Positions 53,079 to 53,932 of a stretch of DNA of 64,000 nt are shown here, piece by piece. Position 1 is the first letter of the stretch, and each line of letters begins with the position of its first letter. The notes under the pieces were generated by a model. The model worked only from the letters and a program-made list of their open reading frames with translations, had not been told where the DNA came from and did not search any database. This DNA comes from an uncultured delta proteobacterium (GTDB lineage Bacteria; Desulfobacterota; Desulfomonilia; UBA1062). Location: contig CAWAUM010000012.1 in the NCBI GenBank assembly GCA_963785235.1, positions 64,001 through 128,000 of the forward strand, in the 5' to 3' direction. The translations under genes were made by a program, and so were the position numbers.

Positions 53079-53918
53079 ATGATTCATCGGCAATTGTTTA
53101 TTTCCATAATCAGGAACATTATCTTTATAGTATTTTTGTTGTTGTGCTCTCTTGCTCATGCGGCTTCGCCGCAGTTGACGCTCAGTCATCTTGTCGGGCG
53201 AATCTATGTTGTGGAGGACTCGTACTACTCGAAAGAAAATTCCGTCGTCTATGTCGGCACGGACTCGGTGACCGTCGTCGGTGCTACGTGGTCTCCGGAA
53301 ACAGCAAAACTCCTCGCTGAAGAGATTAGGAAGGTATCCGACAAACCCATCAGCGAAGTCATCAATACCAACTACCATCCAGACCGCGCGGGCGGAAATG
53401 ATTATTGGAAGCGTATAGGTACCCAGATCATCTCGACTCAGATGACATACGACCTTCTCAAGAGCGATTGGGTCAAGGTTGTAGACTGGACACGTAGCGG
53501 AATTCCAAGCTATCCCCGCCTGCCGCTGGTTCTTCCGACAAAGACTTATCCAGGTGATTTCGAACTCCAAGGTGGTCGAATCAGAACTCTTTACCTTGGG
53601 CAATCACACACTCCAGACGGCATTTTTATATATTTCCCTGAGGAAAAGGTTCTCTACGGTGGCTGCATTCTGAAAGAGCAGATCGGTAACCTCTCTTTTG
53701 CCAATATAGAGGAATATCCCAAGACGCTTCAGAAGCTCAAGCAACTCCATCTCGAAATCAGAACCGTTATTGCTGGACATTGGTCAGCCGTGCATGGGCC
53801 GGAACTTATAGACCAGTATCTGGAGCTGCTAGGGAACAGTTCGGCTATCGAGCCATGGGCCAATGGGGCTATGGCCCAACCAAAGGTTCCAGCGAACGCG
53901 GCGGTGCCGCGCCGCTGA
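53079..53918 (+). CDS. Cassette 2: subclass B2 (CphA-like) metallo-beta-lactamase
   Basis: Signal peptide; [54 protein letters not shown]. Confidence 0.9.
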
Positions 53919-53932
53919 CCCGTACGTTGGGC
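53874..53932 (+). repeat. attC site 2, overlapped by the 3' end of the MBL ORF
   Basis: GCCCAAC...GTTCCAGC...GCTGACC...GTTGGGC. Confidence 0.88.

Follow-up and report, generated by a model that had tools for sequence, protein, structure and literature searches.

Can a metallo-beta-lactamase (MBL) of subclass B2 be carried as a mobile integron cassette? Enzymes of this subclass hydrolyze carbapenems efficiently and are deemed low-risk as species-bound chromosomal genes, whereas the clinical spread of MBLs has taken place through B1 integron cassettes. The question is raised by a gene in a 64,000-nucleotide stretch of DNA from an uncultured Desulfomonilia bacterium (GenBank assembly GCA_963785235.1, contig CAWAUM010000012.1, positions 64,001 to 128,000), referred to below as the window. 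A sequence-only reading of the window had proposed that this gene encodes a B2 enzyme and occupies the second position of a cassette array. We consider it probable that it encodes a secreted periplasmic B2 MBL, a carbapenemase by inference, which is borne as a promoterless cassette in the sedentary integron of this lineage and looks foreign to the genome. The gene and its cassette have the following features.

53079-53918, plus strand: open reading frame (ORF) of the B2 MBL, here called P0001, 279 residues, with ATG at 53079 and TGA at 53916-53918

53070-53075, plus strand: Shine-Dalgarno-like GGAGGG, 3 nt ahead of the ATG, as read from the sequence

53079-53162, plus strand: putative Sec signal peptide of 28 residues, with AHA before the cleavage point and then ASPQ

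53049-53926, plus strand: cassette 2, subclass B2 MBL, 878 bp, bounded by the crossover points of the recombination sites attC1 and attC2

53874-53932, plus strand: attC2, 59 nt, encoding the last 14 residues and the stop (58.9 bits with R1, a covariance model in whose training set it is included)

P0001 scored 375.8 bits (E 7e-113) with NF033087, the NCBIfam equivalog model for subclass B2 (cut-off 240), and 123.9 bits with the B1 model NF033088, under the cut-off of 200. With the models for single B2 families it remained below every cut-off: CphA (325.9 for a cut-off of 500), SFH (312.5 for 550), SFH-related (343.8 for 440), CVI (329.9 for 575), YEM (326.7 for 535) and PFM (318.7 for 525). 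Pfam recognized only the general Lactamase_B domain. Judged from its sequence, P0001 is an unnamed new member of subclass B2, which agrees with the earlier suspicion of a possibly new family. The named B2 families in the excerpt of a 2023 naming review that we used are CphA, CVI, PFM, Sfh and YEM (PMC10740994).

The residues on which the B2 label had been based were all present, together with the CphA-like stretches and the flanking attC sites (residue numbers in the class B beta-lactamase (BBL) scheme were taken from the sequence-only reading and the literature, no tool being used). The signature NYHPDR corresponds to residues 98-103 (nt 53370-53387) and has the B2-type Asn at BBL 116, and the equivalents of His196, Cys221 and His263 are H177 (53607-53609), C196 (53664-53666, within YGGC) and H234 (53778-53780). 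N98, H100, D102, R103, H177, C196 and H234 were invariant in an alignment of 25 relatives, and H100, D102, H177, C196 and H234 align to the ligands of CphA. The signal peptide, also claimed before, is Sec-like by inspection (residues 1-28) and contains a predicted helix at residues 2-23. We also compared 123 B2 relatives, a set made of the window protein and loci from species genomes and metagenomes, from which 11 duplicates and 13 rows (stops or short matches) had been removed. BBL position 116 was Asn in 120 of them and His in both B1 outgroup sequences. Variants of this motif were seen in B2-clade relatives (L060, L061 and three other loci), NWHHDR in two rows and DYHADR or DYHPDR in three, and the metal site of these proteins may differ. 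Residue 220 was Asn in 89 relatives, Gly in 27, Ser in 3 and unmatched in 4, and it was Gly in both B1 outgroup rows. The Gly of P0001 had been read as an echo of the engineered CphA variant N220G; since it is found in 27 of the 123 natural relatives, it is a common natural state and no echo of engineering.

A search of a protein database retrieved 613 relatives at E<=0.001 among 1262 candidates, many of them at 60-78% identity. The best of these, P0002, comes from a Desulfobacterales metagenome-assembled genome (MAG), is already labelled subclass B2, is 82% identical to P0001 and has the same attC-type tail end. Sixty-six species genomes (Verrucomicrobiota, Acidobacteriota, Pseudomonadota, Bdellovibrionota and others) contained B2 genes, and a further 118 genes were found on metagenome contigs, of which 80 were kept. 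One homologue with 61% identity, at L012:5959-6794 in a Desulfobacula sp. MAG, shifts frame just before the His263 region, either through an error of assembly or because the gene is broken. A tree of 79 rows was computed quickly by maximum likelihood (LG+G4, two B1 outgroups, with the SH-like approximate likelihood ratio test, SH-aLRT, as its only support). In it, the B2 clade received 100% and P0001 lay inside it, so that a placement outside B2 was not seen. P0001 formed a trio with the proteins of locus L067 and of Propionivibrio soli (L001), with 95% support. This trio lay outside the branch that holds the Aeromonas, Chromobacterium, Yersinia, Pseudomonas and Verrucomicrobiota/Acidobacteriota groups, a branch whose 89% is not strong support. 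P0001 thus resembles CVI (Chromobacterium), YEM (Yersinia) and PFM (Pseudomonas fluorescens group) in its subclass, as given by model and tree, and in its 55-61% identity to their genome copies, but it differs from them in missing all the family cut-offs and in grouping outside their branch.

The start at ATG 53079 is consistent with the relative at L067, which has GAGGAGG at the place equivalent to the GGAGGG of the window. An alternative, longer frame started by TTG, from 53049, opens within the preceding recombination site, attC1.

Comparison with solved structures pointed in the same direction as the family models. The best seven chains were CphA and Sfh-I (304-315 bits), followed by B1 enzymes at about 80 bits, and the printed alignments of the two best chains, both of them CphA N220G, covered residues 33-251 with no gap. 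An AlphaFold2 model of P0001, built on the 25-relative alignment, had a mean predicted local distance difference test (pLDDT) score of 84.7 and a long helix at residues 121-141. Its top eight Foldseek matches were all CphA or Sfh-I, with template modelling (TM) scores on the target of 0.92-0.94, root-mean-square deviations of 1.4-1.7 A and 58-60% identity (0.94, 1.5 A and 60% for CphA 1x8i); the B1 matches ranked after them, at 2.2-4.1 A and 20-25% identity. The predicted fold is that of B2 enzymes, with the elongated helix above the active site. P0001 therewith shares with CphA (Aeromonas) and Sfh-I (Serratia fonticola) the gap-free core, this helix and the set formed by Asn116-His118-Asp120-Arg121, His196, Cys221, Lys224, Asn233 and His263. 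It differs from them by Gly in place of Asn220, Pro in place of Thr119 and a tail about 25 residues longer; its host is a Desulfomonilia-like anaerobe, whereas theirs are gammaproteobacteria, and its gene is an integron cassette, whereas theirs are ordinary chromosomal genes. We also mapped onto P0001, through the CphA alignment, the positions reported as intolerant to mutation or preferring the wild-type residue in the part of a deep mutagenesis study of CphA that we used (PMC5018959). All were retained (Glu69, Gly84, Asn116, Tyr117, Arg121, Thr197, Asp199, Lys224, Gly232, Asn233, Gly262 and His263), save Asn220, which is Gly.

The conserved residues and the predicted fold together argue strongly for hydrolysis of carbapenems by a mono-zinc enzyme. 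The Zn would be held by Asp120, Cys221 and His263, with Asn116 in the place of the first-site histidine, and the activity would be narrowly directed to carbapenems, as in CphA and Sfh-I. It is very unlikely that the natural substrate is instead another lactam or an unrelated ester, so that the B2 label overstates the function. The position of the clade, outside the branch of all characterized families, would fit such a divergence. On the other hand, the substrate-contact and zinc-site residues defined in CphA are all kept, and the adjoining cassette encodes another beta-lactamase. Moreover, the environmental B2 enzyme 2N30, novel when described and with 51% identity to its best BLAST hit (of the CphA family), hydrolyzed imipenem in E. 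coli according to the portion of the report available to us (PMC6598227).

The second half of the question concerns the cassette. The integron in front of the B2 gene consists of the following elements.

51395-52384, minus strand: intI, intact integron integrase of 329 residues (TIGR02249, 464.5 bits for a cut-off of 265, profile positions 3-315 of 315)

52374-52403, plus strand: candidate Pc promoter facing the cassettes, TTGACA-18 nt-CATAGT (10 of 12 consensus matches)

52491-52518, plus strand: second promoter-like site just ahead of attI, TTGTTA-16 nt-TATAGT (9 of 12 consensus matches)

52523-52529, plus strand: attI core GTTATGC, with crossover after the G, fully complementary to R'', the inner core of attC1

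52524-53048, plus strand: cassette 1, made of a DUF1801 protein (ORF 52566-52952; Pfam PF08818, 59 bits) and attC1 (52991-53054)

intI is the sole integron integrase above the cut-off in the 3.91-Mb genome. Our reading of the intergenic stretches gave eleven attC sites, from 52991 to 60472, a minimum for the array. Their R'' complemented the preceding core (attI or the previous R') at 7/7 positions in eight sites, the other three reaching 6/7, 5/7 and 3/7, and a perfect match of R'' to the site's own downstream core was found in only one of the eleven. Complementarity to the preceding core is the trace expected when cassette circles are inserted and the crossover falls after the G of GTT. Six short sites form hairpins on their bottom strands; that of attC7 was no better than shuffled sequences (z -1.01). 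attC1 (60.3 bits with R1) has a bottom-strand fold of -23.3 kcal/mol (z -4.79). attC2, with cores GCCCAAC and GTTGGGC, has a fold of -19.7 kcal/mol (z -2.99) that pairs the two 7-bp cores and leaves a T and a G bulged out, and the R'' of the B2 cassette complements the preceding core at 7/7. From the crossover points of its attC sites, the cassette extends from 53049 to 53926 and is in second position after the attI core at 52523, as the sequence-only reading had placed it.

R1 was derived from eight short attC sites of this array. When applied to the 64-kb window at E<=1, it returned its eight training sites and the reverse strand of one of them, and nothing else; it missed the three long sites of the same array. 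Neither the B2 assignment nor the cassette structure is due to chance, given the E value of 7e-113 with NF033087 and the lack of other matches to R1 in the remaining 52 kb. Two home-made attC finders, which combined core pairing with ungapped or Smith-Waterman matching of the arms, were dropped as they missed attC2 and gave many matches in ordinary genes. A near-perfect palindrome of 75 nt at 38286-38360 also surfaced in the attC scans. In the whole genome R1 found 24 sites, 8 in this integron and 16 elsewhere, at C12:43550-46932, C7:181251-184349 and C9:54376-55113 and as single sites on C1, C8 and C13. They include clusters of 4 and 5 sites with no integrase over the cut-off, which may be integrase-less cassette clusters.

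The B2 frame reads into its own attC, as had been noticed before: the stop codon falls within the L' arm of attC2, 8 nt ahead of the crossover G (53926). Six of the 25 aligned relatives, the window protein among them, end in R after a Pro/Ala-rich tail, an ending that probably results from a stop within the L' box of an attC. At the other end the leader is only 30 nt, which leaves the cassette no room for a promoter of its own. The cassette would be transcribed from a promoter at the intI/attI end, close to its second position, and its product would be exported through the signal peptide. For its movement, the integron integrase would recognize the bottom strand of attC in folded form, cut the cassette out and insert it as a circle. 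IMP, VIM, GIM, SIM and DIM are integron cassettes, and the B2 cassette is built like them: a single promoterless MBL ORF with an attC of its own, which integrates at attI or attC and relies on Pc. They differ from it in being of subclass B1, with 20-25% identity, and in their location within class 1 integrons, which pathogens carry on plasmids and transposons, unlike the B2 cassette, which lies in a sedentary chromosomal integron with toxin-antitoxin cassettes.

This last point was established from the host genome, which has 13 contigs, 93% completeness and 0.45% contamination. A gene of the window that resembles [FeFe]-hydrogenases has 85% identity to a protein labelled Desulfomonilia by NCBI. 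The window belongs to contig C12, and the integron lies on this chromosomal contig of about 300 kb, where its neighbours are genes for thiamine pyrophosphokinase and for type II secretion. Of 14 other genomes of the genus, 7 had an integron integrase above the cut-off, compared with none of 11 genomes outside it (1 from the same family and 10 from the same class), which indicates a sedentary chromosomal integron of the lineage. We did not find the marks of a mobile class 1-type integron: with the class 1-type model NF011946 intI scored 340, below the cut-off of 435, the contig is chromosomal and the array is rich in toxin-antitoxin genes. The B2 gene is distributed differently from the integrase. 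No other genome passed the B2 model, either among 400 others sampled from the phylum or among the 14 congeners, so that this genome is alone of 401 and alone of 15, respectively; these counts mean that the gene was not found in the genomes searched. The B2 ORF has a GC content of 0.50, and its GC content at third codon positions is 0.55, compared with 0.68-0.78 for four host genes. On this compositional and distributional evidence, the B2 cassette is an accessory, foreign-looking gene here and not a gene of the lineage.

Has the cassette moved? A first piece of evidence is locus L067, where the gene of the trio member (82% identity over 279 residues) is flanked on both sides by an attC (43.3 and 14.4 bits). 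The downstream attC is almost the same as attC2, and the neighbours are different: OXA and DUF1801 genes are absent, and the upstream cassette encodes a polysaccharide deacetylase. Further evidence was obtained in metagenome run X2, which comes from a different study than the best holder of the locus, run X1. One X2 contig matched positions 53047-53202 with 0 differences and carried, before 53047, 282 letters unlike the window that end in the 3' half of an attC-like site. Since this loose end reads as the 3' half of another attC, the break is at the crossover point. A second X2 contig matched 53221-53371, also with 0 differences. The two sources appear to place the same cassette in different array contexts, directly in X2 and through the 82% relative in L067.

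A copy of another kind was found in the cultured betaproteobacterium P. soli SG131 (L001:6001-6840). This 78% relative has kept the tail, and its attC copy is recognizable and decayed, with 5/7 positions of R'', mismatched arms and a lost GTT core. The gene lies among ordinary chromosomal genes (MORN-repeat, PEP-CTERM, AraC and SBF transporter) and looks like a fossil cassette outside any integron. We also considered that this attC-like tail might represent a cassette arising from a chromosomal gene. The decay of a former cassette is preferred as the probable direction because attC2 belongs to the attC family of this array.

Such cassettes did not appear to be widespread among the relatives. 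No integron integrase was found within 5-6 kb in any of 146 relatives' loci, R1 sites were found beside only one of them (L067), and tblastn of IntI, the class D enzyme and the DUF1801 protein against the same loci gave nothing better than E 0.28; the first two results argue against wide carriage as a cassette. The R1 result does not show that the other B2 genes lie outside cassettes, since R1 misses even three long sites of its own array. A weak match at L086 (19.7 bits) was rejected, as it had no complementary arms and no downstream site. The earlier description of the cassette as mobilizable gained support from the identical cassette start behind another attC in X2 and from the 82% relative in L067. 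The integron itself is sedentary and chromosomal and does not belong to the clinical mobile class.

We also looked for this combination of gene and vehicle in plasmids and in the literature. Of the 72,556 plasmids in PLSDB, 956 records matched, none of them at 60% identity or more, and identity was 25-31% for the 15 listed, so that no listed plasmid carries a B2-type gene. This is in agreement with the statement, in the part of Berglund 2017 that we used, that mobile carbapenemases of class B are overwhelmingly B1 (PMC5637372), and with the premise of the sequence-only reading that B2 genes are mainly chromosomal. According to the section of Marathe 2019 that we used, 2N30 was obtained from shotgun data and not from cassette amplicons (PMC6598227), and an Antarctic survey, in the excerpt used, reports B2 genes in Verrucomicrobiota contigs only and not in integrons (PMC13674405). 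Neither P0002 nor 2N30 is described as an integron cassette in the literature searched. No report of a cassette-borne B2 gene, and no earlier description of a near-identical cassette, was found in the full-text literature, a search to which subscription journals, BLDB, CARD and INTEGRALL were external. B2 enzymes and integron cassettes are each known; their combination was not found described.

Several points weigh against a functional and moving B2 cassette. The X2 contigs cover only the first third of the cassette (about 320 nt), at a depth of 2-3, and the junction between the B2 and class D cassettes is bridged by no listed independent contig. R1 was trained on this array alone, so that the absence of R1 matches beside other B2 genes carries little weight. 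The spacer between GGAGGG and the ATG is short, with its 3 nt, and the sigma-70-like sites are consensus matches only, 4 being found in the region for a mean of 2.3 after shuffling. At its C-terminus P0001 is extended by some 25 residues (about 255-279) that CphA and Sfh-I lack; this tail is in part encoded by attC2 and has a pLDDT below 50 at residues 258-278. Finally, in the part of the CphA study used here, the N220G variant gave an imipenem minimum inhibitory concentration (MIC) of 0.75 ug/ml compared with 2, even though its kinetics were normal (PMC5018959).

The unbridged junction would be accounted for if the repeated attC sites had caused a chimeric join in assembly or binning, so that the gene is foreign to this genome or to this position. 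Highly repeated sequence is a classic cause of mis-joins, and sequences like attC1 (52967-53047) and attC3 (54749-54800) were indeed present in four runs at a summed depth of 28-136, compared with about 3-5 for their neighbours. We nevertheless regard such an artefact as extremely improbable. A 589-nt contig of X1 matches 52605-53193 with 0 differences and crosses cassette 1, attC1 and the start of the B2 gene; R'' complements the preceding core at both ends of the cassette; and the contamination of the genome is estimated at only 0.45%. With a wrong order, the cassette itself would still be supported by its own attC and by L067. As a separate observation, the attC1-like and attC3-like sequences had many different flanks in the metagenome runs, and attC sites of this type seem to be common in freshwater, sediment and wastewater communities.

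A further possibility is that a true B2 homologue is silent, as a stored and untranscribed cassette, or impaired by Gly220 or by the tail that attC2 encodes. Poor expression is assumed for many cassettes of sedentary integrons, and the 30 nt ahead of the ATG, the disordered tail and the lower MIC of CphA N220G would all fit this possibility. We consider it unlikely, though less so than the two other alternatives. The ORF is intact and all metal ligands are kept, and position 2 is near the candidate promoters. The tail and Gly220 are common to the closest relatives. The tail has also kept its frame across the window, L067 and P. soli, whose proteins share 78-82% identity, which suggests that it is under selection. 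Furthermore, the catalytic efficiency of CphA N220G was like that of the wild type (kcat/Km of 6.70 and 6.91, respectively) in the same part of the mutagenesis study (PMC5018959). A secreted B2 enzyme carried as a foreign-looking cassette remains the reading that we prefer.

Downstream of the B2 gene, the array continues with the following cassettes.

53927-54784, plus strand: cassette 3, made of a class D beta-lactamase (ORF 53954-54730; NF012161, 286.7 bits for a cut-off of 250) and attC3 (54734-54790)

54785-60472, plus strand: cassettes 4-11 with attC4-attC11, mostly toxin-antitoxin pairs, plus methyltransferases, as identified with Pfam

The class D enzyme scored 282.7 with the OXA-198 family model (cut-off 515) and passed the cut-off of no named OXA family; its best plasmid relative was OXA-198, at 48.3% identity. 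attC3 scored 66.5 bits with R1. Runs X3 (sediment) and X4 (wastewater) also contain the class D cassette; its identity there is about 99%, and each contig piece shows 0-5 differences. One X3 contig became unlike the window before 53924, the boundary of this cassette. None of the contigs listed for X3 and X4 covers the B2 gene, and we attach no interpretation to the uncovered parts. Cassettes 4-11 gave Pfam matches to PIN/Phd, ICMT, BrnT/CopG, ParD/ParE, Phd/ParE, VapB/PIN, a methyltransferase and CcdA/CcdB. Type II toxin-antitoxin cassettes, including a HigA-like antidote, dominate positions 54785-61050, which resemble large sedentary integrons. After the last good attC, fragments like attC with no clear outer core were seen at 61066-61100, 61750-61805 and 62950-63000; they flank a GNAT gene and a gene for an RsgA-type GTPase.

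We hold it to be an even call whether this locus represents the first documented integron-cassette lineage of subclass B2 carbapenemases, and one that is already moving. In such a lineage the cassette may be present in at least two array contexts, with a relative in a third array and a fossil copy in P. soli. If this is true, integrons of anaerobic sediments hold a ready-made mobile form of the sole MBL subclass regarded as chromosomal and immobile. A B2 gene with a working-looking attC in more than one array would mean that the first barrier to capture by mobile integrons has been removed. The finding widens the known host range and sequence space of B2 enzymes, which is useful for resistance-gene databases and surveillance models, and its relevance to resistome surveillance is moderate to fairly high. 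P0001 also provides a natural variant with Gly220 and Pro119 for structure-function work on the specificity of B2 enzymes.

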